Below, piece by piece: positions 1-58,645 of a stretch of DNA of 64,000 nt. The stretch spans positions 9,857-73,856 of the forward strand of contig CAWGAO010000008.1 in assembly GCA_963820595.1 (NCBI GenBank), written 5' to 3'. This DNA comes from Candidatus Tagabacteria bacterium. GTDB taxonomy: Bacteria; Patescibacteriota; Minisyncoccia; GCA-002779875. Every line of letters begins with the position of its first letter. Position 1 is the stretch's first letter. Both the position numbers and the translations under genes were made by a program. The notes under the pieces were generated by a model that searched no databases, was not told the origin of the DNA, and saw nothing but the letters and a program-made list of their open reading frames with translations.

Positions 1-375
1 GCTCTGGGGAATCGACATCTTAACGGGATGGCTGAAACCCAAACTTAAAGCTAAGGCCGAACCTTCCTTTGTCGCGCGATAGCCGACTCCTTCGATTACA
101 AGGACTTTACTGAATCCTTTAGTAACGCCGTCAATCATATTGCGAACGTGAGAAGCGTAAGTTCCCCATAAAGAAACGGTCTCTTTGGCCCGTCTTATTT
201 TTTTTACCTTGTTTGGTTTCAAACTTATCATATCCGGGTTAACGGAAATGATAATGTCGTCTTTAAAATGCCGACTGGTTTCGCCAAGAGGACCTTTGAC
301 GGTCAATAATCCGTTTTCTATTTTTACGGAAACGCCCTCTGGAATCATGATTGGTTTTTTACCTAAACGCGACAT
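1..375 (-). CDS. rplF: 50S ribosomal protein L6, 3' end cut by window edge
   Basis: rc translation from ATG at 373-375 gives MSRLGKKPIMIPEGVSVKIENGLLTVKGPLGE..., typical L6 N-terminus; position downstream of rpsH. Confidence 0.85.
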   Translation of the reverse strand, partial: MSRLGKKPIMIPEGVSVKIENGLLTVKGPLGETSRHFKDDIIISVNPDMISLKPNKVKKIRRAKETVSLWGTYASHVRNMIDGVTKGFSKVLVIEGVGYRATKEGSALALSLGFSHPVKMSIPQS

Positions 376-573
376 GCCAAAATTATATGAACGTTAGTGA
401 ATAATAATTTTGAGCACCCGCCCAATTTTTTAACAACCCTATCAAACCGAAAAAGTCCAACATTTTGTTCCTATTCATTTTTTTATTTTTCATCATTGTT
501 ATCATAAAAATTTGGGCGGGTAAGGTTTTACAGTCGCGATTTGTCGCTTCGTTCCAAATCGCGAGTAAAGCCC
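376..573 (-). repeat. mosaic intergenic module: conserved leader box ending at rplF ATG, inverted arms (acccgcccaattttt / aaaatttgggcgggt), palindromic unit with GAACGAAGCGA loop next to rpsH stop
   Basis: repeated architecture seen ~20x in window; nested inverted repeats read directly. Confidence 0.7.
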
Positions 574-963
574 TTACCAAATCTTGCACAACACTTCGCC
601 TCCGACTTTTTCTTTAATTGCCTCTTTATTCGTCAAAAGACCTTTCGGCGTCGAAAGAATCGTCATACCGAAACCCTGCCTGATAGGTTTTATTTCTTTT
701 AGCGGCAGATAAACGCGGCACGAAGGTTTTGAAATGCGGGCGATATGGACAATCGCCGCTTTGCCATTTTCATCATAAGACAAAACCAGCTCGATTGTCT
801 TTTTATTCTTTTTTCCCCGCCGATTTATTTCTTTGATGTAATCGGTTCTTAAAAGAACCTTCGCAACCTCCATCTTTAATTTTGAATAAGGAATTACCAC
901 CGCTTCTTTTTTTACGGCTTGGGCATTTCTTATTTTTGTAAACATGTCGGCGATTGGGTCCAT
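574..963 (-). CDS. rpsH: 30S ribosomal protein S8
   Basis: ORF-track protein MDPIADMFTKIRNAQ... is canonical S8. Confidence 0.9.
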   Translation of the reverse strand: MDPIADMFTKIRNAQAVKKEAVVIPYSKLKMEVAKVLLRTDYIKEINRRGKKNKKTIELVLSYDENGKAAIVHIARISKPSCRVYLPLKEIKPIRQGFGMTILSTPKGLLTNKEAIKEKVGGEVLCKIW

Positions 964-1167
964 GCCAAAATTATATGAACGTTAGTGAATAATAATTTCG
1001 AGCACCCGCCCAAATTTTTGAATTTGTCTCTGCCGAATAAAAATATTCTGGTTGCCATTTTTCATATTTCATAAAATGTAAATCTTAAAGATAATTCAAA
1101 AACTTGTGGCGGGTAAGGTTTTACAGTCGCGATTTGTCGCTAACACTCCAAATCGCGGGCCAAGCCA
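964..1167 (-). repeat. mosaic intergenic module (leader box + covarying arms + palindromic unit)
   Basis: near-identical 50-nt leader to 376-427; arms cacccgcccaaattttt / caaaaacttgtggcgggt. Confidence 0.7.
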
Positions 1168-1353
1168 TTACCAGCTTGATTTCTTTACTCCAGGAATCCT
1201 GCCTTCGTTGGCGAATTCCCTGAAACAAATCCGGCACATGTCGAAATCGCGCATATAGCCTCTTTTTCTGCCGCAACGAAAACATCGCCGCACAACGCGG
1301 CTTTTGTATTTAGGCTTCTTTTGACTTCTTGCGATTACCGATGTCTTTGCCAT
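1168..1353 (-). CDS. rpsN: 30S ribosomal protein S14 type Z (zinc-binding, 61 aa)
   Basis: [33 protein letters not shown]...CRICFRE, CxxC..CxxC. Confidence 0.9.
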
Positions 1354-1439
1354 TTTTGTTTACGAGTGCTAGCGAGTAATTACAAAAATGAGCACCCCGC
1401 TCAAATTTTGCCGCGCTAATCACTCATTATTAATAAATA

Positions 1440-1685
1440 AAGATAAATGTTGTTTATCTCTCGCCGCCTGCGCGTCCCGAACCCCGCTACTATAAATCCT
1501 TCGGATTTAAGTACGGGGCGAGTAGCTTTTAACTACTCTTGGGCGACCTGCCCCGTAGGGAACGCGAAGCGTTATCCTTCGGGGAGCGGGCGGCTATTGC
1601 GCTTCCTCGCAAAATTTGTGCGGGGTCGCCATGTTCTAGAATATAACGGATTCCAGTTATTTTTGCAACACTGACTGAATAAAAT
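1440..1685. repeat. GC-rich structured repeat, copy of family containing CTACGGGGCAGGTCGCCC core (other copy 58380-58560)
   Basis: ~200 nt alignable to rc of 58400-58560 with compensatory substitutions in stems. Confidence 0.5.
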
Positions 1686-1829: not shown

Positions 1830-2153
1830 ATGAAAAAGATTGGAAAGATTCTGTTGCTAATTGCAATATTAGCAGTTTATTTGAACTTCGGATGGATGAT
1901 GGGCGCATATTACGCCGACCACGGCTTACCTAAAGCCGAGCAAGGAGTAACCACTTTAGGCAAATTTATATGCGGGCCAAATGCCTGGATGTCTAACGAA
2001 AGCGGGTCTCGTCTCTCGTGGTGTGTTATGTCCTCAATCTGCTGGCCCTTTGGGATGGTTATCTGCGGAGTTAGCTGGATTGTTTACGGCATTTATTATC
2101 TCCTCTGGTTCATTTTTGCCGGCGGAATTGTCAAAACCCTCGGCCTCATCTAA
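1830..2153 (+). CDS. small membrane protein (107 aa), antisense orientation inside the ribosomal operon
   Basis: SD aaaaggagg 8 nt upstream of ATG; two to three hydrophobic helices; followed by hairpin terminator. Confidence 0.6.
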   Translation: MKKIGKILLLIAILAVYLNFGWMMGAYYADHGLPKAEQGVTTLGKFICGPNAWMSNESGSRLSWCVMSSICWPFGMVICGVSWIVYGIYYLLWFIFAGGIVKTLGLI

Positions 2154-2953: not shown

Positions 2954-3137
2954 AATAGATTTTTTGAATGAGCGAAGTGAATTTTAGAAAATCATCACCC
3001 CGCCCTCTAAGCACAAATAATTCCTTTTAATTTTATTTCTTACATTAAACATCATCTTCGTAATTTCTCCAATTCTTCACGCATAGAGGGCGGGGTTCTC
3101 AAAAAATATATTCACTTCGTTCATTATTTTTTGGAAC
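2954..3137. repeat. bidirectional module: leader-like box facing rplE ATG on - strand and a second leader-like box facing + strand, arms accccgccctctaagcac / gcatagagggcggggt
   Basis: ATTCACT-containing leader on both sides of the arm pair. Confidence 0.6.
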
Positions 3138-3166
3138 TTGACAAATCTTTTTTTAATTGCTATAAT
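3138..3166 (+). promoter_or_regulatory. consensus sigma70-type promoter TTGACA-17-TATAAT
   Basis: exact hexamers with 17-nt spacer, 45 nt upstream of SD-bearing ORF at 3215. Confidence 0.6.
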
Positions 3167-3214: not shown

Positions 3215-3460
3215 ATGAAGGTTGTAATTCCAACGGGGGTCATTTTGACTATTATCGGCTTTCTGGCGTTCAGCGGATTGCCGAATATTTGGCAAAAGAT
3301 CGTTATGTGGCTGCTGGTCGCGGGAACTTTGGTTGGCATGGTCATGATGGGCCGGTATTGTTCTATTTTTTGCCGTCGCAATCATTGTTTGGCCGATTAC
3401 GGCTTCTCTGAAGTCCTGCGTTCCCAAGAAATAGTCCTTACGCTTCCTTCAAATATTTGA
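3215..3460 (+). CDS. small membrane protein (81 aa)
   Basis: SD aaaggagg then ATG; hydrophobic helices. Confidence 0.5.
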   Translation: MKVVIPTGVILTIIGFLAFSGLPNIWQKIVMWLLVAGTLVGMVMMGRYCSIFCRRNHCLADYGFSEVLRSQEIVLTLPSNI

Positions 3461-3754
3461 CCCGCACTTTTTGCAAACGCGGGTCTTATTTTTTCCAAGA
3501 ACCTTATAACCGGCCCGTCTCGGTTTGTTGCAGGTCGGACAAATCAACATCACATTCGAAGCCCTTAACGGCATCGGCACCTGGATTACCTGCCCCTTTT
3601 GACCTTGCTTTTTTGAACGGCTGTGCTTTTTCCTTATATTCACTCCCTCAACTACGACAACATCGCCTGTCGGGAAAACTTTAAGAACTTTCCCGGTTTT
3701 TCCACGATCTTTTCCTGAAATTGCCATTACATTATCATTTTTGCGAATTTTCAT
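3449..3754 (-). CDS. rplX: 50S ribosomal protein L24 with C-terminal Cys4 zinc-ribbon-like tail
   Basis: MKIRKNDNVMAISGKDRGKTGKVLKV... KOW motif; tail CPTC...CKKC. Confidence 0.85.
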   Translation of the reverse strand: MKIRKNDNVMAISGKDRGKTGKVLKVFPTGDVVVVEGVNIRKKHSRSKKQGQKGQVIQVPMPLRASNVMLICPTCNKPRRAGYKVLGKNKTRVCKKCGSNI

Positions 3755-3782
3755 AAATTATTAATGGAGAACAGTTCTCCAT

Positions 3783-4154
3783 CTAAACAACCTCCGGCGC
3801 TAAAGAAATAATTTTCGCGTATCCCCGTTCGCGAAGCTCTCTGGGCATGGGCCCAAAAATACGGCCTGCTTTCGGCTCCTGAGTTTTCGCCTCAAGAATT
3901 ATCACGGCATTATCGTCAAAACGCACATACGAACCGTCTTTTCTGCGGTAAGGCTGGCGCTGACGGCAAACTACCGCTCTAAGCACATCTTTTTTCTTCA
4001 CTGCCTTTCTCGGCTCCGCGGATTTCACGGAAACAACCACAATGTCGCCTATGCGGGCATATCGCCTGCGGCTTCCGCCCGGCACTTTAATAACCTGCAC
4101 GAGTTTTGCCCCGCTGTTATCGGCAACACCTACCATTGAACGAGTTTGAATCAT
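3783..4154 (-). CDS. rplN: 50S ribosomal protein L14
   Basis: [24 protein letters not shown]... canonical L14. Confidence 0.9.
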
Positions 4155-4341
4155 GCCAAAATTATATGAACATTAGCGAATAATAATTTTGCGCACCGAG
4201 CACATAATTTATAGCAACCTTTTTATTAAGATGTTCGAAATTTTTACTAAATCTTTTTTTGAAACTTCACTAAATTTTTCATAAAATTATGTGCTCGGTA
4301 AAGGTTTGGCGCCTATATTTTCTCGTCTAAAACTCGAAAAT
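4155..4341 (-). repeat. mosaic intergenic module (leader box ending at rplN ATG; arms accgagcacataatttat / ataaaattatgtgctcggt; hairpin)
   Basis: arm sequence differs from other copies but the two arms still match each other. Confidence 0.65.
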
Positions 4342-4573
4342 CTAGGCCAATCCCTTTACTTCCCAATGCTTGCCTCTCGACCTTGGTTTTGTTTCCTGAA
4401 TTATCACTTTATCGCCGACCTTATACTCGTTTTTCTCATCGTGCGCCTTATAGCGTTTGCTTGCTTTTCATATATTTTCCGTAAAGAGGATGTTTTGTAT
4501 AGCGCTACACCTCAACGACAACCGTTTTTGCCATTTTATCGGAAACAACAACTCCTTTTAATTTCTTTGCCAT
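4342..4573 (-). pseudogene. rpsQ: 30S ribosomal protein S17, reading frame broken by an in-frame TAG and one frameshift (probably sequence error)
   Basis: rc translation MAKKLKGVVVSDKMAKTVVVEV*RYTKHPLYGKY...; after a 1-nt shift ...[32 protein letters not shown]; expected gene-order position between rpmC and rplN. Confidence 0.7.
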
Positions 4574-4673
4574 ATGATTGATTTTCTTAATGAGCGAAGC
4601 GAGTTTTGAAAATCATCACCCCCTTCTTTTCGCGCAAGCGCGCAAAAGGAGGGGGTTAAGAAAAACATAATCG
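4574..4673 (-). repeat. mosaic module, leader variant containing a palindromic unit (rc GAGCGAAGCGA loop) ending at rpsQ ATG
   Basis: arms aaccccctccttttgcgcgc / gcgcgaaaagaagggggtg. Confidence 0.6.
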
Positions 4674-4862: not shown

Positions 4863-5047
4863 GCCATAATTATATGAACGCTAGTGAATAATAATTTTCG
4901 CACCCCGCCTCTAACGCTTGCGCTCTTTTTATTAAATGATTATCTTGATATTTGCTTCATAATTTTTGTTTAAATTCGTGATAGAGGGCGGGTAAAGGTT
5001 TGGCAACAGAATTTTTCGCCTACGGCTCAAAATTCTGTCCAATTCGC
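4863..5047 (-). repeat. mosaic intergenic module (leader box at rpmC ATG; arms caccccgcctctaacgc / gatagagggcgggt; 3' hairpin)
   Basis: direct reading. Confidence 0.65.
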
Positions 5048-8969: not shown

Positions 8970-10396
8970 ATGGAAAAAAGCAGCCGTATCGAATTACCGA
9001 AAGAAAAAATACCCGTAGCTTGGTACAATATCGTTCCGGATCTTCCCGAATCGCTGCCGCCGCCGAGAGACGAGGAAGCATTGGGAAGATTAGTGAAAGC
9101 CCTTGTCGGCGAATGCCTGAAGCAGGAAATGTCGAATGAAAGATGGATAGCCATCCCGCCCGAACTTATTAAGATTTATGCCGAAATCGGAAGGCCCCGT
9201 CCTCTGACTCAGGGCGAGGAATCTCGAAAAACTCCTCGGCCTTAAGGGTATCGAGCTTTATTTCAAGATGGAAGGCGAAAGCCCGACCGGCAGCCATAAA
9301 CTCAACACCGCCGTTGCCCAAGCATACTTCGCTAAAAAAGCCGGCATCAAAAGGCTGACAACGGAAACGGGCGCCGGCCAATGGGGAACGGCGCTTGCCT
9401 GCGGAGCGAAACTGCAAGATTTGGAATCCACGGTCTATTGGGTGAAATGTGTTTACAAATGGAAAAAGGAAAGAAGAAAATTCATAAAATTTTTCGGGGC
9501 GGAAGTTTTCGCTTCACCCAGTCAAAACACGGAGGCAGGCAGAAAATTTCCTAAAGACCATCCCGGCTCTCTTGCCATCGCGATTTCCGAAGGAATCGAA
9601 GACGCCTTAAGCGACCCGGACGCGAAATATTGCCTTGGCTCGGTGCTTAATCACGTCTTGATGCATCAAACAATCATCGGCCTTGAGACAATAGAACAAC
9701 TCTCAATGATAGACAGGTATCCGGCCGATTATATGATCGCCTGCGTCGGCGGAGGAAGCAATTTCGGAGGCTTCTGTCTTCCGACAATCGGCAAGATTCT
9801 GAAAGAAGGGATAAAAACAAAATGCATTGCCGTCCAGAGCGAGAGTTCGCCCAACCTCATAAAAGGCGTTTATAGATACGACAGGGGAGACCACGCCGAG
9901 CTCACGCCGGAATTAATGATGTACACCCTCGGACATCAATGCGAGATGAAGCCGATAAAGGCTGACGGCCTAAGATATCATGCCGCAGCGCCCATAATCA
10001 GCTCTGCTCAGAAAACTCGGATTCATTGAAGCAGTAAGCTACCCTGCCGATGAAATACGAGTTTTTGAAAGGGCAAAAATTTTCATCGAATCCGAAGGGT
10101 TCCCTCTCGGAACGAAAGATTCGAAAAAGAATATCAAAGAAGCTCTTTTGAGGGCGAAAAAATTTCTTAAAGTGGTCACCGGCACAAGCAATATCCAGGA
10201 AATGTTCGCGGTGAGTAAAGATTTTATAGAAAACAAAATCTTTATTCCGGCGCCGGAATCGGCTTACGCTGTCGCCCACGCGATTGATAAAGCGCTCGAA
10301 TGCAAAAAGGAAAAAAAGAAGGCAGTGATAGTCGCCAATATCAGCGGTCATGGCTTTCTTGATATCGAAGCTTACCGGGAAAAATTAAATCTTTAA
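8970..10396 (+). CDS. trpB: TrpB2-type tryptophan synthase beta-like PLP enzyme, >=2 apparent frameshifts
   Basis: pieces: ...IPVAWYNIVPDLPESLPPP...; ...MEGESPTGSHKLNTAVAQAYFAKKAGIKRLTTETGAGQWG...; C-terminal piece ends ...ISGHGFLDIEAYREKLNL. Confidence 0.7.
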
Positions 10397-13034: not shown

Positions 13035-13259
13035 AAAACCGTTCAAAAGCCCTTCGGGGCTTTTTGCTTTTGAGAATTTAATTTGGGTCGCATAGTAGAG
13101 GACGTTAGAACTGTAATCCAGCGACAGCAGGGGTATATTTATATCCCAGATTTAAAACCGACAATGATGAAGATATAACCTATCCTACCCCGCTACTAAC
13201 TATTTCAAAAGGACGGGGTTCGTGATTGATTTTTTAATTAAAGGCTCTACACTTTGGAT

Positions 13260-13883: not shown

Positions 13884-14145
13884 AAAAACGAAAAGCACCC
13901 ATTTAGGATGCTTCTCACGTTTAGTATCTCCACTATAGCAAGCTGGTTTTTATTGTCAATATCCACTTTTACCCTACCCCGCTACTCACTATTTCTTCGG
14001 AGAAAAACGGGGTGGGCTACGGGACGCATTCAGAACCCTGGATTGGATACAGGTTAGGAAAGAGTTGGATGATTTCGCCTTGCATTTTGAACAACAATTT
14101 GCTATAAATAACTGAGAAAATTCCTTGAAAAGGAGGAAAAGATTG

Positions 14146-17399: not shown

Positions 17400-17640
17400 T
17401 CTTTTTCTAAAAATCAAGGAGCGTAAGCGACTATGATTTTTGAGAACCCCGCCTTAATTTTACCGTCCACATGTAATCTAAGTTCAGAGAATTAAAAAGT
17501 TTTATTTGCTTGTTGCGAGGCGCGGACGGCGAATAGCCGCACCCCTGCCTGCCGGCAGGCAGGCCTTTTGCGCGAAGCGCCGAGCCGATACATTGGATTG
17601 TAAAATTAAGGCGGGGGTGGATTTACAAAAATTTTTTCGC
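17400..17640 (+). repeat. mosaic module copy (palindromic unit with GAGCGTAAGCGA loop; arms ccccgccttaatttta / taaaattaaggcgggggtg)
   Basis: direct reading; not next to a translation gene. Confidence 0.55.
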
Positions 17641-30863: not shown

Positions 30864-33394
30864 TTATAGCCCCTGTAAATCCTGGCTGGTAAACTCGATT
30901 TTTGAGCCCCGATCGACCTTGCCCGCGATTATCCACTCTGCTATTTTTTTCTCGACTCGGTCGGTAATGGCGCGTTGCATCGGCCGCGCTCCGAAAACCG
31001 GGTCATATCCGATTTCGGCAACCTTATCAAGAAGAACATCGTTAATAACTAAATCAATTTCTTTTTGCGCAAGTAGGCGTTTTCTCAATTTTTCAAGCAT
31101 TAATTTCGCGATTGTTTTTAAATTCTCTCGGCTCAAATGGCGGAAAATGATAATCGCGTCAAAACGGTTTAAAAGCTCCGCCTTGAAAGTGCCCGCTTTT
31201 TGAATCGAATCGATTACCGCTTCTTTCAAGGCGGACGGGTCAACTCCCTTTTTTCCCATTTCCCAAATCAGCTGCGACGCTGCGTTCGAAGTCGCAATGA
31301 TGATGTTGTTGCGCGTAAAAACTTTTTTACCGAAAGCATCGGTGAAAAATCCCTCATCAAGAATCTGTAAAAACAAATCCATTACCTTCGGGTGGCATTT
31401 TTCAAATTCATCCAAAAGCAGAAGCCCGTACGGCCGCTCGCGCAATTTTGAAGCCAAGAGCCCCGGTTCGTTTTTTTCAAACGAGCCGATCAAGCGCTCA
31501 AGGCCGTTTTCATTCTGATACTCGCTCATGTCAAACCGAAGCATTGCTTCTTCGTTTCCGAAATATATCTCCGCCAGAGCTTTGGCGGTTTCGGTTTTTC
31601 CGACGCCGGTGGGACCAAGAAAAAGAAACGAACCAAGGGGCTTTTTTGTTTCCTGCAATCCCGTTCTCACTCTCCGCACCGCCGCGCTGATTGCCGAAAT
31701 CGCTTCTTCCTGGTCAACGACCCGCTGATGAAGAATTTCTTCCAAATGCAGTAATTTTTCTTTTTCTTCCGGCAGCAACGCCCCGAGCGGCATTTTTGTT
31801 TTCAGGCTGACCAGCGCCGAAATGTCATCCGGAGTAATAATCGCCCTGCCCTGGCCGGAAACTTGGGCGCTCACGGTTTCCAAAATATCAATAGCCCGCT
31901 CCGGCAGGCGCCTTCGGTCAAATAAGTAGTGGATGCATTCGCGATTTCACGGATAGTCTGAAACAGAAATATAACGCCTCTCGTTCCTTCGAGCTCCAAT
32001 GAAACGTCTTCGAGGATTTCGAAAAGTTCTTTGCTGTCGGGTTCTTCGACTCTGACGATTTCGAAATACTGCATCAAGGAACTGTCCGATTCCAGATACC
32101 GCTTGAATCCGCCGGAATCGGAAATGGCGATAACCTGCAAATAATTGCTGGCGAGGTAAGGCGAAACTACTTGAGTTAAAGAAACTCCGAGCGCTTCAGC
32201 CGATTTCAAAAACTCCGCGAAATTATCAATAACCAAAATAATGTTGCCGGCGCGAACGGCGTCATTAAAAAGACGGATGATAAGATTTTCCAAGTCGCCC
32301 TTGGTTTTGGCGGAAGCGACGAGCGCGCCGGCATCGAGCTCGAGCAAACGCTTGAATTCCAGTTCCGGCCTTATCCTTCCGCGTTTAATCATTTCGCCGA
32401 AACCGGCCACGACGGTCCGCTTCCCTACGCCCGGCTCGCCGACAATCAAAACATTTGCTTGAGCGGTACGGGATAAAATCGCCTCAATCGCCTCAATCTG
32501 TTTCTGGTGGCCCGTAAAATGCAAAGCCTTATGTTCGACGGAAAAATCGGCCCCTTGGGAAAAAGGCGTCGCGTAACGGTCTAAAAGATAAGTGGCGGCA
32601 TTCGCCCAATCTTTGGCAATGCCCTGGATTCGAGCAAGATTTTCTTCCAGCCACCAATGCGACACTTTTTCTTTTTTTTGAGAAAGCTCGCTTGCCCATT
32701 CAAGGACGCCGCCGATATCCTCTTTTTTAATCTTCATTTCAAAAAAGAATTGGAAAAGATTCTCATCTTTTTCCAATATCGCCATAATCACGTCGCTTGC
32801 GCCCACTTCCTGTTTATTTTTTGACCGCGCTTCTTTTAAAATATCTTCGAAAAGCGGCAGCGGGCTTTCTTTTATCGCCTCGTCGGAAAAATTCTTATTG
32901 AGAGTGTCGAGAAAATCTTTGGCGTCAAGACCGAGATGCAGAAAAGAAAATTTTCCGATTTCGGTTTCGGTAAAAGTCTTGAGAATGTTCGGCCCGGAAA
33001 TAAATTTGCGGCGATAAACGGTTTTAGAAATAAGGGAGGCGGCTTCAAAATCCAAATAGTCGGCGATGTTTTGCGATTCCTTAGGAACGAATTCGAGATT
33101 GGATTTCGAACGATAAAAACTCTCAAGCGAAAAAATAACCAGCCTGAAGGCGAGAATCAGGAAAACAAAATCAGTAATCTTTTTCTGAAGCACCAAATTG
33201 TCTATGCCCTTTATCAAACCGGGTTTCAGCACGGAAAGCGCGGCGATGGCGAGAATGGATAATACGATAAGTATGTCAAAAAATTTCGCGAGTCCGCGGC
33301 GAATTTTTTTCGGGAACGCGTTATCAAGCCAAAGCACGGAAGCGAATCTGCTTTTCTTTAAATCGAAATTAAATTGTCCGGCATCATTCAACAT
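30864..33394 (-). CDS. Clp/Hsp100-family double AAA+ ATPase with N-terminal transmembrane segment, one apparent frameshift near 31875
   Basis: two Walker A sites (GEPGVGKRT, GPTGVGKTE); N-terminal 100 aa contain two hydrophobic helices. Confidence 0.65.
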
Positions 33395-41408: not shown

Positions 41409-41502
41409 TGAATTCGCCCGCGATTTTGAGCGAAGCGAAGAATCGCGGTTACAAAATGCGAAAACATTAAATTATTAGTCGTTTAACTCCTTAATTTTTG
41501 GC
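41409..41502 (+). repeat. minimal module: palindromic unit (GAGCGAAGCGA loop) + AT-rich leader ending at rpsG ATG, without arm pair
   Basis: cccgcgattttgagcgaagcgaagaatcgcgg ... taactccttaatttttggcATG. Confidence 0.6.
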
Positions 41503-41970
41503 ATGAGAAGAAAAATCAGAGTAAAATACAAATTAAATCCAGACCCGCTTTACGACTCGAAAAAAATCGAGAAATTTACCAATTACCTGATGTGGAAAGG
41601 AGAAAAATCCGTTGCTCGTGAAATCGTCTATCAAACTTTTGAAGAAATAAAAAAGAAAATAAAAGCAGATCCGATTGCGATTTTCGAAAAAGCGATTGAA
41701 AATGTTTCACCTATGATTGCAGTGCGCTCCCGAAGAGTCGGAGGCGCCACCTATCAGGTTCCTAGAGAAATTCCTCCTGAAAAACGCATAGGCTTCGCAA
41801 TGCGCTGGATAATTCTGGCGGCGCGGTCAAAAAAAGGCAAAAATATGTCCTATCGGCTTTCGGAAGAACTTATTGCGGCTTCTAAAAACGAAGGAGCAGC
41901 CGTTAAAAAAAGAGAAGATACTCATAAAATGGCCGAGGCTAATCGCGCTTTCGCTCATTTTGCTTGGTAA
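41503..41970 (+). CDS. rpsG: 30S ribosomal protein S7
   Basis: canonical S7. Confidence 0.9.
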   Translation: MRRKIRVKYKLNPDPLYDSKKIEKFTNYLMWKGEKSVAREIVYQTFEEIKKKIKADPIAIFEKAIENVSPMIAVRSRRVGGATYQVPREIPPEKRIGFAMRWIILAARSKKGKNMSYRLSEELIAASKNEGAAVKKREDTHKMAEANRAFAHFAW

Positions 41971-42171
41971 TGACTTTGCTCGCTATTTGGAGCGTTAGCG
42001 ACAAATTGCGGCCGCAAAACATTACCCGCCTAAGTTTTTGCGAAATAATTAAAATATGAAAAATCTAAAAAAGAAAAATTTTCAAAAATTTAATTCGTCT
42101 TTGGAGTATACCCGCAAAAATTTGGGCGGGTGTTCAAAAATTATAGTCATTAACATTCCTTAATTTTTAGC
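41971..42171 (+). repeat. mosaic module (palindromic unit, arms cgcctaagtttttgcg / cgcaaaaatttgggcg, leader GGTGTTCAAAAATTATAGTCATTAACATTCCTTAATTTTTAGC-ATG)
   Basis: direct reading. Confidence 0.65.
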
Positions 42172-44244: not shown

Positions 44245-44488
44245 TGGCTTGGCCCGCGATTTGGAGTGAAGCGACAAATTGCGGTTGCCAAATATTACCC
44301 CGCCCTTTTGGGCGCGAGATGTTATAATAAAACTATGGATATATTAAGTTTAAAAATTATAAAACGGCAATGCGCTTTAGTTATAACGGGATGCGCCTAT
44401 TCGGCGCCCGCGCATTGCGGAATTGAGTATGGCGCCAAAAGGGCGGGGTGCTCAAAAATTATAGTCGCTTAACTCCTTAATTTTTGGC
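44245..44488 (+). repeat. mosaic module (palindromic unit GGAGTGAAGCGA loop; arms ccccgcccttttgggcg / cgccaaaagggcgggg; leader ending at ATG 44489)
   Basis: direct reading. Confidence 0.65.
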
Positions 44489-44587
44489 ATGTCTGACGAC
44501 CAAGAACAAAAAGAAAAACTTTTCTCCGAAGAGGCCTTAGAAGACGATTTGGAAATCGAAGCAGATGTAGAAAGTTTGCCACTTTAA
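44489..44587 (+). CDS. small acidic peptide (32 aa) with its own module leader
   Basis: MSDDQEQKEKLFSEEALEDDLEIEADVESLPL; leader identical in type to rpsG/fusA leaders. Confidence 0.3.
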   Translation: MSDDQEQKEKLFSEEALEDDLEIEADVESLPL

Positions 44588-45193: not shown

Positions 45194-46388
45194 ATGGCAG
45201 AAAAATTTGAAAGGACAAAGCCGCACGTAAACGTCGGCACAATCGGCCACGTTGACCACGGCAAAACCACTTTGACCGCCGCTCTTTTGCACGTGCTTAA
45301 TTTGGCGGGCAATAAAGTTAAAATGGAAGGCGTCAATGACATCGACAACGCGCCCGAAGAAAGACAGCGCGGCATTACCATTGCCCTTCACCACTCGGAA
45401 TACGAAACTCCGAAAAGGCACTATGCCCACATCGACGCTCCGGGCCACGCAGACTACATCAAAAACATGATTACCGGAGCCGCTCAAATGGACGGCGCTA
45501 TTCTGGTCGTTTCCGCTGCCGACGGCGCAATGCCCCAGACCCGAGAACACATTCTTTTGGCCCACCAGGTCGGCGTTCCGGCAATCATTGTTTTCCTGAA
45601 TAAAGTCGACACGGTTGACGACAAAGAATTGGTTGATTTAGTTGAAGCGGAAATCCGCGAGTTGCTTACAAAATACCAATATCCCGGAGACAAAACTCCT
45701 ATTATTCGCGGTTCGGCTTTAAAGGCGCTTGAGGCAAAATCAGTCGATGACGAATGGGCAAAACCAATCTTGGAACTTGCCAAACAACTTGGACGAATAC
45801 ATTCCTGAACCGGTGCGTGAAATCGATAAACCGTTTTTAATGCCCATTGAAGATATTTTCTCAATCGAAGGTCGCGGAACGGTTGTTACGGGCCGCATTG
45901 AACGAGGCAAAATAAAACTTAGCGATGAAGTTGAAGTAGTCGGCTTACGCCCCACTCAAAAAACAGTAGTTACCGGAATTGAAATGTTCAATAAATCCCT
46001 GGATGAAGGATTGGCGGGCGATAACGCCGGGATATTACTTCGAAGTCTCAAAAAAGAAGACGTGGAACGCGGCCAAGTTTTGGCCAAACCAGGCTCCATT
46101 ACTCCACATACCGAATTTCAAGCCGAAATTTATATCTTGACCAAAGAAGAAGGCGGCCGCCACACGCCGTTTTTTGCGGGCTATAAACCGCAATTTTATC
46201 TTCGCACAACCGACGTGACCGGAGCCGTTACCCTTCCGGAAGGCACTGAAATGGTTATTCCGGGCGACACGATTTCATTAAAAGTAGAACTTTTGGCGCC
46301 CGTTGCTCTGGAAGAGAAACAGCGATTCGCGATTCGCGAAGGAGGAAAGACCGTCGGCGCAGGAGCCATAACAAAAATCATAAAATAA
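45194..46388 (+). CDS. tuf: elongation factor Tu, one apparent single-nt insertion near 45785
   Basis: [13 protein letters not shown]...; after -1 shift [34 protein letters not shown]...; cttggacg vs expected cttgacg. Confidence 0.9.
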
Positions 46389-48823: not shown

Positions 48824-49669
48824 ATGAAGTTAAGATCTTACCGACCTACAACTCCATCGCGAAGACAAATGACCGGATTAGTATATCGCGGAGTTTTAAC
48901 GTCTAAAAGACCGGAAAAAAAATTAACCAAGGGCTTTAAACGGGCAAAAGGAAGAAACGTGTTCGGCCGAATCACGACAAGACACAAAGGAGGAGGCGCA
49001 AAACGACTTTTCCGAGTCATAGATTTCCGCTATGATAAACACGACATTCCTGCAACGGTAAAAAGCATGGAATACGACCCGAATCGCTCCGGATTCATCG
49101 CTTTGGTCGCTTATGCCGACGGAGAAAAACGCTATATCCTCGCTCCGGCAGAAGTTAAAACAGGAGATAAAATAATCACCTCCCGAAATGCGGAGTTAAA
49201 GCCCGGAAATCGGCTCCCTTTAGGAAAAATTCCGGTCGGCACACAAGTTTTTAATATCGAATTAAAGCCCGGAGCCGGCGCAGTTTTGTGCCGTTCGGCG
49301 GGCAATTACGCTGAAATTCTGGCGCACGAAACAGGATTTGCCCATTTGAAATTGCCTTCAACCGAAGTGCGCAAAGTTCCTGACCAGGCGTGGGCCAGTA
49401 TCGGCAGAGTTTCAAAGGAAGAACACGGTCTCGTAGTTTTCGGTAAAGCGGGACGTTCGCGGCACAAAGGCATTAGGCCAACCGTGCGAGGCTCGGCAAT
49501 GAACCCGGTTGACCATCCTTACGGCGGCGGCGAAGGAAGAATGGGTCGCGGAACACGCCGGCCAAAAACCGCATGGGGAAAAATCACCGGAGGCACCAAA
49601 ACCCGCAAACGAAAAAAATATTCAAATATTTTCATTATCAGCCGCCGAAAAAAGAAAGTGAGAAAATAA
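48824..49669 (+). CDS. rplB: 50S ribosomal protein L2
   Basis: ...GRNVFGRITTRHKGGGAKR... HKGIRPTVRGSAMNPVDHPYGGGEG. Confidence 0.95.
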   Translation: MKLRSYRPTTPSRRQMTGLVYRGVLTSKRPEKKLTKGFKRAKGRNVFGRITTRHKGGGAKRLFRVIDFRYDKHDIPATVKSMEYDPNRSGFIALVAYADGEKRYILAPAEVKTGDKIITSRNAELKPGNRLPLGKIPVGTQVFNIELKPGAGAVLCRSAGNYAEILAHETGFAHLKLPSTEVRKVPDQAWASIGRVSKEEHGLVVFGKAGRSRHKGIRPTVRGSAMNPVDHPYGGGEGRMGRGTRRPKTAWGKITGGTKTRKRKKYSNIFIISRRKKKVRK

Positions 49670-49865
49670 AGGAATTTGCACGCGATTTTAAGCATCAGCG
49701 AAAAATCGCGCTTGCAAAACCTTTATCCCGCCCTCTATGCATAAATTTAAAGAAAAAATATGAAGCAAAACATCAAACCAGTAATTACAAAAGAAAAGAG
49801 CGCGAACCGCTTAGAGGGCGGGGTGCTCAAATTTAATTATTCACTAACGTTCATATAAATTTGGC
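49670..49865 (+). repeat. mosaic module (palindromic unit AAGCATCAGCGA loop; arms cgccctctatgc / gcttagagggcgg; leader box ...ATTCACTAACGTTCATATAAATTTGGC-ATG)
   Basis: direct reading. Confidence 0.65.
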
Positions 49866-50199
49866 ATGTCGCGCTCACTTAAAAAAGGGCCGTACGTAGA
49901 CCCATCAATATTGGAAAAAATCAGCCGCAGTAAACCGAATCGATGCCGGCGTTATTAAAACATGGGCGCGCAACAGCCAGATTTCTCCGGAAATGATTGG
50001 CTATACTTTCGGCGTTCACAACGGAAAAGATTTTATCGAGGCAAGAATCACCGAAGAAATGGTCGGCCACCGCCTCGGAGAATTCAGCCCCACCCGCAAA
50101 TTCATCACTCACGGAGGAAAAATGCAGCGCGAGTTAGAAGCAAAAAAGAAAGCCGCTGAAATTGCCTCAGCCCAACAGGCGAAAGTTAATGAAAAATAA
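49866..50199 (+). CDS. rpsS: 30S ribosomal protein S19, apparent +1 frameshift near 49938-49958
   Basis: [25 protein letters not shown] then stop; next frame ...[27 protein letters not shown]...[11 protein letters not shown]. Confidence 0.85.
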
Positions 50200-50378
50200 G
50201 GAGCGACAGCGACTCTATTTTTCTTAACCCCGCCCTCTAGGCACAAAAAATTGAAAAAAATATGAAAAAAATGCACAATACGAAAATTAATATCGAAGAG
50301 AATTGCTCGCGCTTAGAGGGCGGGGTTCTCATAATTTCAGTTAAATTTTATTCATTTCATTCTAAAATTTAAGAAATT
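50200..50378 (+). repeat. mosaic module (palindromic unit GAGCGACAGCGA loop; arms ccgccctctaggcac / gcgcttagagggcgggg; leader variant)
   Basis: direct reading. Confidence 0.6.
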
Positions 50379-53459: not shown

Positions 53460-53759
53460 TTAGAAAAATAAGAAGCCTAAGCGACTATATTTTTCTAACC
53501 CCCTCTTTTACACACAGCTTTTTAGTTAAAGTTTAATAATTTATTTGATATAATAAAAAAGTGGTTTGTTTTCCGAAATTAAATTTAGTGTTAAAAGAGG
53601 GGGTGCTCAAAATTACCGCGCCCGACTTCGCCTCGACGTTTCAAGTTAAAAAATAAAATGAATATGAAAAGACAATATACAAATAAAATTGAAATTATTA
53701 TCAAGGCGTCGAAGTCGAGGCGGGCGGGTTATTCACTAACATTCATATAATTTTGGCGG
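53460..53759 (+). repeat. mosaic module with a second perfect ~20-bp-stem hairpin element nested inside the leader box
   Basis: leader interrupted between AAAATTA and TTATTCACT by ccgcgcccgacttcgcctcgacg...cgtcgaagtcgaggcgggcgg. Confidence 0.6.
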
Positions 53760-57083: not shown

Positions 57084-57301
57084 AATTTTTAAAAATTTTA
57101 GAACGGAGTGAATAAAATTTTTGTAAAATTATGAGCACCCCGCACTAATTTTGCTGTATTATTCTTATAAAAATTTTATTTCTTACAAGCTCGATATTAC
57201 TCTCGCAGTTCGCGCGCCGCGAATAGCGGCATCCCTTATTGGGCGAAGCGGACTGCCATTTTTATACCCCGCAAAATTTAGTGCTGGGGTCGCCATAATT
57301 T
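57084..57301 (-). repeat. mosaic module supplying leader box to the Fic/Doc gene (arms ccccgcactaattttgc / gcaaaatttagtgctgggg)
   Basis: rc GGGGTGCTCATAATTTTACAAAAATTTTATTCACTCCGTTCTAAAATTTTTAAAAATT-ATG. Confidence 0.55.
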
Positions 57302-58339: not shown

Positions 58340-58379
58340 ATAAAATAATTTTACTATTTTTAGTGAAAAAGATAAACCA

Positions 58380-58645
58380 CCCCGGCACCAATTTTGCGTG
58401 ATATTTCACGGCGAAGCGCTCCCCGAAGTATCCGCCTCCGGCGGAACTACGGGGCAGGTCGCCCTAACTCTAGTGGCTACTTGCCCCGCATAATCGCGTA
58501 GCGATTTGTGCGGGGTTCGCCGCACGCGCTTCGCAAAAATTGTTCTTATTTCCCGCCTATAAAGCGCCTAGCAACAAAAAAGTGGCAAAATTGATGCGGG
58601 GTGCCCAAAAATTATAGTCGTTTCACTCCTTAATTTTTGGCAAAT
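58380..58645 (+). repeat. degenerate module (no ATG at leader end) whose spacer carries copy B of the GC-rich structured repeat
   Basis: arms accccggcaccaattttgcg / gcaaaattgatgcggggtg; leader ends ggcaaata instead of ggcatg. Confidence 0.55.

Follow-up and report, generated by a model that had tools for sequence, protein, structure and literature searches.

The inverted repeat at positions 998-1120 of a 64,000-nucleotide stretch of Candidatus Tagabacteria DNA (the window) is one slightly worn copy of a long hairpin, P1, that stands at the centre of a three-hairpin intergenic module. At least 16 such modules occur in the 64 kb, all of them between genes, and the same architecture is found in contigs from other lineages of the candidate phyla radiation (CPR). 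The safest statement is that the module represents a new, CPR-specific family of interspersed palindromic repeats that lie between genes and have a three-hairpin modular build. Beyond this, we consider it probable, though not by much, that these repeats, comparable to REP/BIME, BOX and Correia elements, are co-transcribed as flush RNA hairpins. An earlier note on the window had drawn attention to the stretch because its arms differ between copies and match within a copy; that note overlooked a one-sided GCTC, a further hairpin on either side, and the constant placement and orientation of the module relative to stop and start codons.

Anatomy of the module

The flagged copy (e2 in the series e1 to e13) lies between rpsN (S14, 1168-1353, minus strand) and rpsH (S8, 574-963, minus strand), both identified by translation, within a minus-strand ribosomal-protein operon of the order L16-L29-S17-L14-L24-L5-S14-S8-L6. 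Its left arm, GAGCACCCGCCCAAATTTTTGAATT (1000-1024), and its right arm, AATTCAAAAACTTGTGGCGGGT (1093-1114), carry three mismatched positions; the right arm is followed by AAGG, and the complement of GAGC is absent on that side. Structure prediction, which the earlier note had proposed as a check, gave a single hairpin for the stretch as DNA (z -4.1) and three hairpins for the S14-S8 spacer as RNA (-62 kcal/mol, z -5.5, with 0 of 200 shuffles as good). The sense RNA of this module is predicted to be more stable than the antisense RNA (-62 versus -55 kcal/mol). The parts of the flagged copy are as follows.

1128 to 1157, minus strand: P0 hairpin, CGCGATTTG-GAGTGTTAGCGA-CAAATCGCG, after the S14 stop codon (1168-1170).
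1004 to 1114, minus strand: P1 hairpin, in mRNA sense ACCCGCCACAAGTTTTTGAATT ... AATTCAAAAATTTGGGCGGGT, with an ortholog in the related contig L240.
1000 to 1003, minus strand: one-sided tetranucleotide GCTC (GAGC on the plus strand), between P1 and P2.
961 to 999, minus strand: P2 hairpin, AAATTATTA..TATAATTTT, then GGC and the ATG of rpsH.

Read in gene sense, a module runs from the stop codon through 1-2 nt, P0, UUU, P1, GCUC and P2 to the GGC-AUG of the next gene. The linkers between stop codon, hairpins and start codon are thus 1-2, 3, 4 and 3 nt long, and the whole module inserts ~200-250 nt at a gene junction. The arms of P1 pair imperfectly around an AT-rich interior, and the hairpin is closed by ACCCCGCCC/GGGCGGGGT (ACCCCGCCC/GGGCGGGGU in RNA) and by 4-8 further pairs that are specific to a subfamily. 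The tetranucleotide GCTC follows the hairpin on its 3’ side (read on the other strand, GAGC precedes it) and belongs to one P1 arm only, with variants GTTC, TCTC, GATG and GCGC; the opposite arm is preceded by ..AAACCTTT. The core that the earlier note had described is not symmetric, as its GAGC/GCTC extension is confined to a single arm. The base of P0 is conserved as GGcUUKGY/RCMAAaCC with an invariant C.A mismatch, and its inner stem is variable. In P2 the 8 nt that follow GCUC pair with the last 8 nt before GGC, using several pair types, and in those window copies where a start codon comes directly after P2, the two are 3-7 nt apart. Conservation is strongest in the linkers and at the foot of each helix, and the distal parts of the hairpins vary.

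Several departures from this plan were observed. A second flank class reads GAGUCCCGC-GUAG-CGGGAC-GAAA / GCUC-ACUUCGUUCGC-AUG and places P1 only 11 nt from the start codon. In divergent spacers, as at e4, an inverted P2 serving the other gene stands in place of P0. Cores other than ACCCCGCCC also close P1: ACCGAGCACAUAAU upstream of rplN in the window and in metagenome locus L192, and ACCCCCUC upstream of rpsQ and in e11. Differences between CCC and CCCC in the core may partly be homopolymer errors, since several window genes are split by frameshifts.

Metagenome contigs were scanned with the pattern ACCCCGCCC-N70-100-GGGCGGGGTGCTC, which gave at least 124 two-arm matches in at least 120 stretches, mostly from groundwater and sediment, with a handful of chance hits in high-GC DNA. 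The counts of 107, 79 and 78 copies used below are drawn from the metagenome matches listed. Among these matches the total length of P1 peaks sharply at 104-106 nt, and longer copies are those in which nested inserts are present. The unrelated spacers of 60 nt to ~1 kb that the earlier note had described are not in keeping with this, and its ~1-kb spacer enclosing an open reading frame (ORF) proved to be a pairing (57126/58585) of arms from two separate modules, in which the 3’ arm of e13 had been matched to e12, with cupin and superoxide dismutase genes between them.

The nested inserts lie at the P1 apex of e3 (about 1440-1610), e6, e8, e12 and e13 (58398-58583) and are GC-rich, structured and 60-190 nt long. 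They share the motif GSGCCGAATAGGCKC-AYCCC and CCCCG..CGGGG hairpins, occur also in a Saccharibacteria contig (L033, 1960-2050), and gave no Rfam match. The hairpin motif ACCCCGCTACTNACTATTTC....CGGGG was seen once inside e3 (1481-1530) and twice elsewhere in the window (13187-13235 and 13976-14030). A nested palindrome, CCGCGCCCGACTTCGCCTCGACG...CGTCGAAGTCGAGGCGGGCGGG (53616-53735), interrupts the P2 of e11, and an insert of the same type is found in P2 of L132.

At the 3’ end of P1 an alternative mini hairpin, GGGC-GGGGT-GCTC followed by AATTTT, can form on the minus strand (997-1014, 1389-1403 and 410-425); it was flagged by a terminator scan and could compete with the closing of P1. An intrinsic terminator was considered as an identity for the module and rejected: the sequence after P1 is GCUC and then AAUUUU, the scan picked out this mini hairpin of 4-7 pairs and not P1, and the modules lie inside operons.

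Pairing within copies

Among the 13 window elements, an arm’s own partner was its best match in 10. The mean alignment score was 6.9 for own arms and -0.8 for other arms, and 0 of 5000 re-pairings reached the observed mean (p<1/5000). In 107 distinct metagenome copies, the 14 nt beside the 9-nt core formed 8.5 Watson-Crick pairs with their own partner compared to 6.47 when re-paired (z 11.6). The metagenome comparison was ungapped and anchored; a gapped whole-arm alignment failed to separate own from foreign arms (0.70 versus 0.69) and was uninformative because AT-rich sequence aligns to anything. The claim that each left arm matches its own right arm thus withstands comparison with re-paired controls, and all seven segments given as examples in the earlier note were found.

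Pairing is maintained through change in all three hairpins. The variable P1 positions 1-4 are paired in 97-107 of the 107 listed copies, with 3-4 pair types each; in P0, 15 of 20 pairs keep pairing via changes on both sides; and the closing stem of P2 covaries (z 12.7). The orthologous P0 of L240 differs from that of the window by a compensatory change from CGCG/CGCG to CACG/CGTG. Arms differ between copies yet match within a copy because subfamilies exist and because compensatory change keeps the pairing. The earlier suggestion that the arms are not the decaying ends of one classical terminal-inverted-repeat transposon is supported by these data: it is the pairing itself that has been kept.

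By their variable segment, P1 copies fall into subfamilies TCTAWGC (the commonest), AAATTTTTG, TTTCTA, ATACTTT, CATTT, CACTTTTT and others, and these segments are common to different loci and genomes. The 8-12 nt beside the core are complementary within a copy, as had been proposed, but they are specific to a subfamily rather than to a copy. This bears on fold-back or hairpin-primed copying, a mechanism put forward in the earlier note, in which each arm pair would be made de novo from local sequence. Such copying would account for the matching arms of one copy, but subfamily segments shared between loci and genomes, imperfect arms and a tight constraint on length all argue against it, and no variable arm was seen to be copied from adjacent unique sequence. 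In the TCTAWGC subfamily, moreover, the fifth position is A on one arm and T on the other. Of 78 copies, 40 have T.T and 22 have A.A, so that 62 carry the same mismatch in one of two forms, each the reverse complement of the other. Fresh synthesis would not leave such a mismatch, and we regard fold-back copying as extremely improbable. Selection for the mismatch was also considered; 4 of the 16 departing copies are Watson-Crick at this position, which is about the neutral rate of 1 in 3, and we therefore make no claim of selection.

Gain, loss and inversion of the central hairpin

The remaining window copies, together with one spacer that lacks P1, are listed below.

373 to 565, minus strand: module e1, rpsH/rplF junction; P0 534-565, P1 416-521, GCTC 412-415, P2 to ATG 373-411.
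1390 to 1626, minus strand: P1 of e3, upstream of rpsN, with nested GC-rich insert.
2997 to 3100, plus strand: P1 of e4, in the divergent spacer between rplE and ORF 3215-3460, with a P2-type hairpin on both sides.
4152 to 4354, minus strand: module upstream of rplN (L14); core ACCGAGCACATAATTT.. 4195-4299, P0 4303-4354, P2 to ATG 4152-4190; its core type is the one also found in L192.
4571 to 4656, minus strand: module with a short P1 variant, ACCCCCTCCTTTTGCGCGC / GCGCGAAAAGAAGGGGGT (4618-4656), then GATG, P2 and the ATG of rpsQ (S17).
4898 to 4993, minus strand: P1 of e5, between rplP (L16) and rpmC (L29).
17442 to 17620, minus strand: P1 of e6, with nested insert; the sole window copy oriented against both neighbour genes, its P2 having no start codon after it.
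41409 to 41505, plus strand: rpsL-rpsG (S12-S7) spacer with P0 and P2 and without P1 and GCTC, ..GCGAAAACATT|AAATTATTAGTCG..
42024 to 42135, plus strand: P1 of e7, between rpsG and fusA (EF-G).
44297 to 44453, plus strand: P1 of e8, downstream of fusA, with nested insert.
49678 to 49868, plus strand: module e9; P0 49678-49721, P1 and GCTC 49725-49828, P2 to ATG 49829-49868; ORF 48824-49669 upstream and rpsS (S19) downstream.
50227 to 50330, plus strand: P1 of e10, upstream of rplV (L22).
53497 to 53608, plus strand: P1 of e11, core variant ACCCCCTC, with the nested palindrome in its P2.
57133 to 57290, minus strand: P1 of e12, with nested insert, upstream of a Fic-domain gene.
58379 to 58606, plus strand: P1 of e13, with nested insert, in a divergent spacer.

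The rpsS call beside e9 rests on the N-terminal sequence and on a match to a Pfam-confirmed S19; the ORF upstream of e9 is presumably rplB (L2), by its position in the operon. The window is bacterial chromosome, with EF-G, MurD, NiFe hydrogenase and four tRNAs, and its S8 is nearest to proteins labelled Parcubacteria by their sources.

Two related contigs, L239 and L240, were reached via S8 homologues, and their S8 proteins are 78-80% identical to that of the window. At junctions where the window has modules, theirs measure 3-30 nt (3 and 7 nt at S8-L6, 6 and 29 nt at L16-L29). L240 keeps an S14-S8 module orthologous to the flagged copy, and L239 has a module upstream of L16. Compared to L240, e2 is identical in the 3’ arm and GCTC and carries three changes in its 5’ arm, which suggests that the flagged copy is slightly decayed or contains sequencing errors; the interiors are not alignable. 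The S12-S7 spacer differs from the filled e7 site exactly by P1 and the tetranucleotide, with no duplicated bases, and is an empty or precisely deleted P1 site. One such P0-P2 site was thus found in the window, and none in 0.73 Mb of metagenome loci.

P1 interiors were also found in both orientations. Those of L188 and L205 are 98% identical if one is inverted and 73% identical when compared directly, and 29 of 195 pairs with similar interiors are inverted, including the L148 group against the L160 group. The inverted pairs stand at unrelated loci (before HPF, SSB, S5 and other genes) with the GCTC side unchanged, and every pair with homologous flanks on both sides has the same P1 orientation. 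Taken together, this gain, loss, exchange and flipping shows mobility or recombination at the DNA level.

An inverton, in which the arms serve as recombination sites and the AT-rich interior flips to switch the downstream gene, would explain how one interior can occur either way round between inverted repeats of 13-17 bp that are themselves identical. We judge this very improbable: inverted pairs occur only at different loci, pairs with homologous flanks all keep their orientation, the targets are essential genes inside operons, P1 holds no conserved promoter, and no invertase gene was seen among the 20 window ORFs scanned with Pfam. An interior of ~80 bp is, in addition, very short for recombinase-mediated inversion.

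It is possible, although doubtful, that the module is a selfish, non-autonomous element resembling a REPIN or a miniature inverted-repeat transposable element (MITE). P1 and its tetranucleotide would then be a DNA hairpin for a trans-acting HUH/Y1 transposase (RAYT or IS200/IS605-type) or another enzyme, inserted without duplication at a preferred ..CCTTT, and the pattern of neighbouring genes would reflect the insertions that survived. Presence and absence at orthologous junctions, the exact, duplication-free difference at the P1-less site, 98%-identical P1 at unrelated loci with clearly diverged flanks, nested insertions inside P1 and P2, and a P1 without G.U strand bias are all consistent with such an element, as is the one-sided tetranucleotide beside a GC-rich hairpin foot, which recalls the GTAG of REP. 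This tetranucleotide and the lack of duplication make a hairpin-specific HUH/Y1 enzyme an attractive analogy, although the scanned ORFs revealed neither a RAYT (Y1/HUH) gene nor any other transposase. Like a MITE the module has terminal inverted repeats, but no target-site duplication is found when e7 is compared to the P1-less site, and its flanks are conserved hairpins. Neither the window nor the metagenome loci showed a full-length insertion sequence that shares these ends, although no systematic search for one was made there. Several further features are difficult to reconcile with a selfish origin. Saccharibacteria, Doudnabacteria and Parcubacteria share a conserved core, a conserved tetranucleotide and conserved bases of the P0 and P2 hairpins, a reach that selfish repeats do not usually have; compensatory evolution is seen in P0 and P2; the modules have a strong orientation bias relative to genes and end flush with stop and start codons; no empty P0-P2 sites were found in the metagenome loci; and insertion of one strand fails to explain inverted interiors beside a constant GCTC side.

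Further observations were made on the genes around the copies. Directly after the fusA-downstream module lies a 32-codon ORF (44488-44586, plus strand) in the usual P2-GGC-ATG context, encoding a very acidic peptide, MSDDQEQKEKLFSEEALEDDLEIEADVESLPL. Two small ORFs resembling hydrophobic membrane proteins run opposite to the ribosomal-protein operon, at 1830-2153 (plus strand, between L5 and S14; no Pfam match) and at 3215-3460 (plus strand, between L24 and L5), the latter with a perfect TTGACA-17-TGnTATAAT promoter at 3138-3166. The relative L239 likewise has two opposite-strand genes between L5 and S14 (3417-4509). Some essential genes are interrupted, namely rpsQ (4357-4573, in-frame TAG and frameshift) and tuf (45194-46388) and clpB (30864-33394), each of which is divided into two ORFs; these are either assembly indel errors or pseudogenes or recoded genes.

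Distribution and possible roles

The same architecture was found in contigs labelled Saccharibacteria (L033, L086 and L089), Doudnabacteria (L100) and Patescibacteria (L078). These came from a search of genome contigs with a 16-nt single-arm pattern, whose matches were mostly chance matches in high-GC genomes, the real ones being L033, L042, L078, L086, L089 and L100. The repeat had no match among 2.9 million contigs of a viral collection and is on this evidence not phage-borne. No Rfam family matched the modules, whether at the gathering score or with E relaxed to 1. No description was found in the full-text literature, including by core sequence, which does not disprove that one exists. Spacers of some metagenome loci carry in addition a ~150-nt repeat, CCGCCCATATCCCGAATGAAATGAGGTTAAGGGGCGCGATCCCGCACTTCC...GCGGAAGTTGCGGGA, inserted between P0 and P1 or inside P2 (L148, L157, L160 at about 9790-9940, L201 and L213), and CPR spacers thus appear as mosaics of several structured repeats.

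The position of the modules relative to genes is strongly biased. Among 79 listed copies with 400 nt of flank, a same-strand gene of at least 80 aa begins within 140 nt downstream in 55 and a gene ends within 140 nt upstream in 62, with both in 46; the mirror situations number 11 and 7. The 78 downstream proteins include S18 (eight times), L11 (five), L6 and S3 (three each), S11, S19, L13, S4 and L25 (two each), RecA, ProRS and FtsX. About half of the downstream genes encode ribosomal proteins when single cases read by eye from their N-terminal sequences are included. EF-G, NusA, SSB, EF-P, RpoA and SecY are further examples, and modules also stand before Fic, GalU, NYN and membrane-protein genes.

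Because most copies lie between co-directional genes of an operon, they must be transcribed with the mRNA. In the transcript the three hairpins would fold flush, leaving stop and start codons only about 11 unpaired nt apart despite an insert of ~200-250 nt. Each outer hairpin would cap a cistron, P0 the one upstream and P2 the one downstream, and P1, as a long double-stranded stem, may be a site of processing or of stability, for which RNase III is the obvious candidate nuclease. Such a function would be independent of orientation. P1 itself may spread and flip through recombination between arms or copies, or through a hairpin-specific enzyme. Flush hairpins that keep the codons close, together with a long stem, lead us to favour a co-transcribed repeat with a role in processing, stability or translational coupling, a role to which the orientation of P1 is irrelevant and which therefore fits the flipping that was observed.

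Several observations weigh against this reading. The module is locally dispensable, since the relatives do without it at the same junctions, and its RNA role is one that we infer. The orientation of e6 runs against its neighbours, and the best sigma-70-like promoter for the plus-strand gene beside e4 is found downstream of that copy. The abundance of ribosomal-protein genes could reflect tolerance of insertion, or DNA that is often single-stranded, and not function. P1 has no sense-strand excess of G.U over A.C (194 versus 216), and the antisense strand is slightly more stable for P0 in 25 of 31 and for P2 in 54 of 70 cases, by 1-2 kcal/mol on average. This advantage comes largely from the P0 mismatch, whose invariant C.A turns into G.U on the antisense strand, and the variable pairs of P0 in sense include six G.U and one C.A. 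Evidence on which strand folds is thus mixed.

The greater antisense stability of P0 and P2 would also suit antisense small-RNA genes, in which TATAAT-N5-GAGC on the opposite strand would be promoter and start of a transcript that closes its own 5’ and 3’ ends, and several window copies do read ..gacTATAATttttGAGCACCCC.. on the antisense strand. We nevertheless find such genes highly unlikely. TATAAT is the 5’ half of the AT-rich P2 stem and is elsewhere replaced by AATTTTGT, GGTTTTAC or AATGTTGT, covarying with its partner; no terminator follows; and position tracks the start codons of sense genes. The 3’ half of P2 was also considered as the -10 box of a leaderless mRNA. This fits the window (TATAAT-N6-ATG) but not other lineages (..AAAATTGGCATG), in which the stem covaries, and was rejected.

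Conservation at helix bases and linkers with variable distal parts, a fixed distance to the AUG, the share of ribosomal proteins among downstream genes and the conservation across deep CPR lineages could also indicate a regulon-wide cis-regulatory element. Here GGcUU/AAaCC-UUU-ACCCCGCCC/GGGCGGGGU-GCUC-...GGC-AUG would be bound by a conserved CPR protein or by the ribosome, co-ordinating ribosomal-protein and growth genes and leaving the distal hairpin parts free to vary. We think this distinctly unlikely, as orthologous junctions of the relatives lack the module, Fic, GalU, NYN and membrane-protein genes are among the targets, there is no candidate factor, and the conserved internal loops of a ligand-binding type are absent. 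Somewhat less improbable, but still unlikely in our estimation, is a CPR-wide RNA “punctuation” element of operons. A nuclease, an RNA-binding protein or the ribosome would be the conserved factor that reads its invariant junction, with the effect that polycistronic mRNAs are processed and translation of genes for ribosomal proteins and for growth in general is coupled or tuned.

In the way it works the module resembles REP/BIME, BOX, ERIC and Correia elements, yet it belongs to none of these families. REP/BIME and REPINs of proteobacteria, whose RAYT transposase gene typically lies between copies of the repeat, are likewise GC-rich, imperfect extragenic palindromes present in many copies, often within operons. 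In REP/BIME, too, a one-sided tetranucleotide stands at the hairpin foot, mosaics with other motifs are formed, and paired inverted units give a hairpin of ~100 nt. The REP tetranucleotide, however, is GTAG and lies 5’ of the palindrome, whereas the GCTC of the module lies 3’ of the hairpin. Unlike REP, the module has an additional conserved hairpin on each side of its palindrome, directly adjoining the stop and the start codon, is strongly oriented toward the downstream gene, and keeps its sequence across CPR lineages of class level, not just inside a single species group. BOX of Streptococcus pneumoniae is also a three-part intergenic repeat with inverted-related outer modules, a variable middle and predicted stem-loops in transcripts, but the middle of the CPR module is a long hairpin with a conserved GC clamp and is tied to start codons and translation genes. 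No sequence relationship between the two is known to us.

Correia elements (CREE/NEMIS) of Neisseria and ERIC of enterobacteria resemble the module as co-transcribed, intergenic palindromic repeats of 100-150 bp that are present or absent between strains. Their hairpins are RNase III substrates and alter mRNA stability. The 26-bp terminal repeats, TA duplication, IHF site and insertion in either orientation of Correia elements were not seen in the module. Integron attC sites are similar in that structure is kept while sequence varies, the halves of one site match, and mismatched bases are conserved. Their cores are RYYYAAC/GTTRRRY, compared to ACCCCGCCC/GGGCGGGGT in the module, and they flank mobile cassettes, whereas the neighbours of the module are in the canonical orders L16-L29-S17-L14-L24-L5-S14-S8-L6 and S12-S7-EF-G; no integrase or attI was seen in the window.

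Much of bacterial diversity belongs to the CPR/Patescibacteria, which have tiny genomes, and almost nothing is known of how they control gene expression. In these streamlined genomes the repeat fills many junctions of the most conserved operons. It may be an unusually successful ancient selfish element, or it may be an unnoticed layer of mRNA processing and translation control. If the punctuation element were true, it would be a cis-element of the translation apparatus on the scale of a regulon that tolerates exchange and flipping of its central hairpin, with no described bacterial counterpart. Either way, CPR contigs can readily be recognised by the repeat, gene callers and RNA-motif screens need to treat it with care, and it can be put to the test in cultivable Saccharibacteria.

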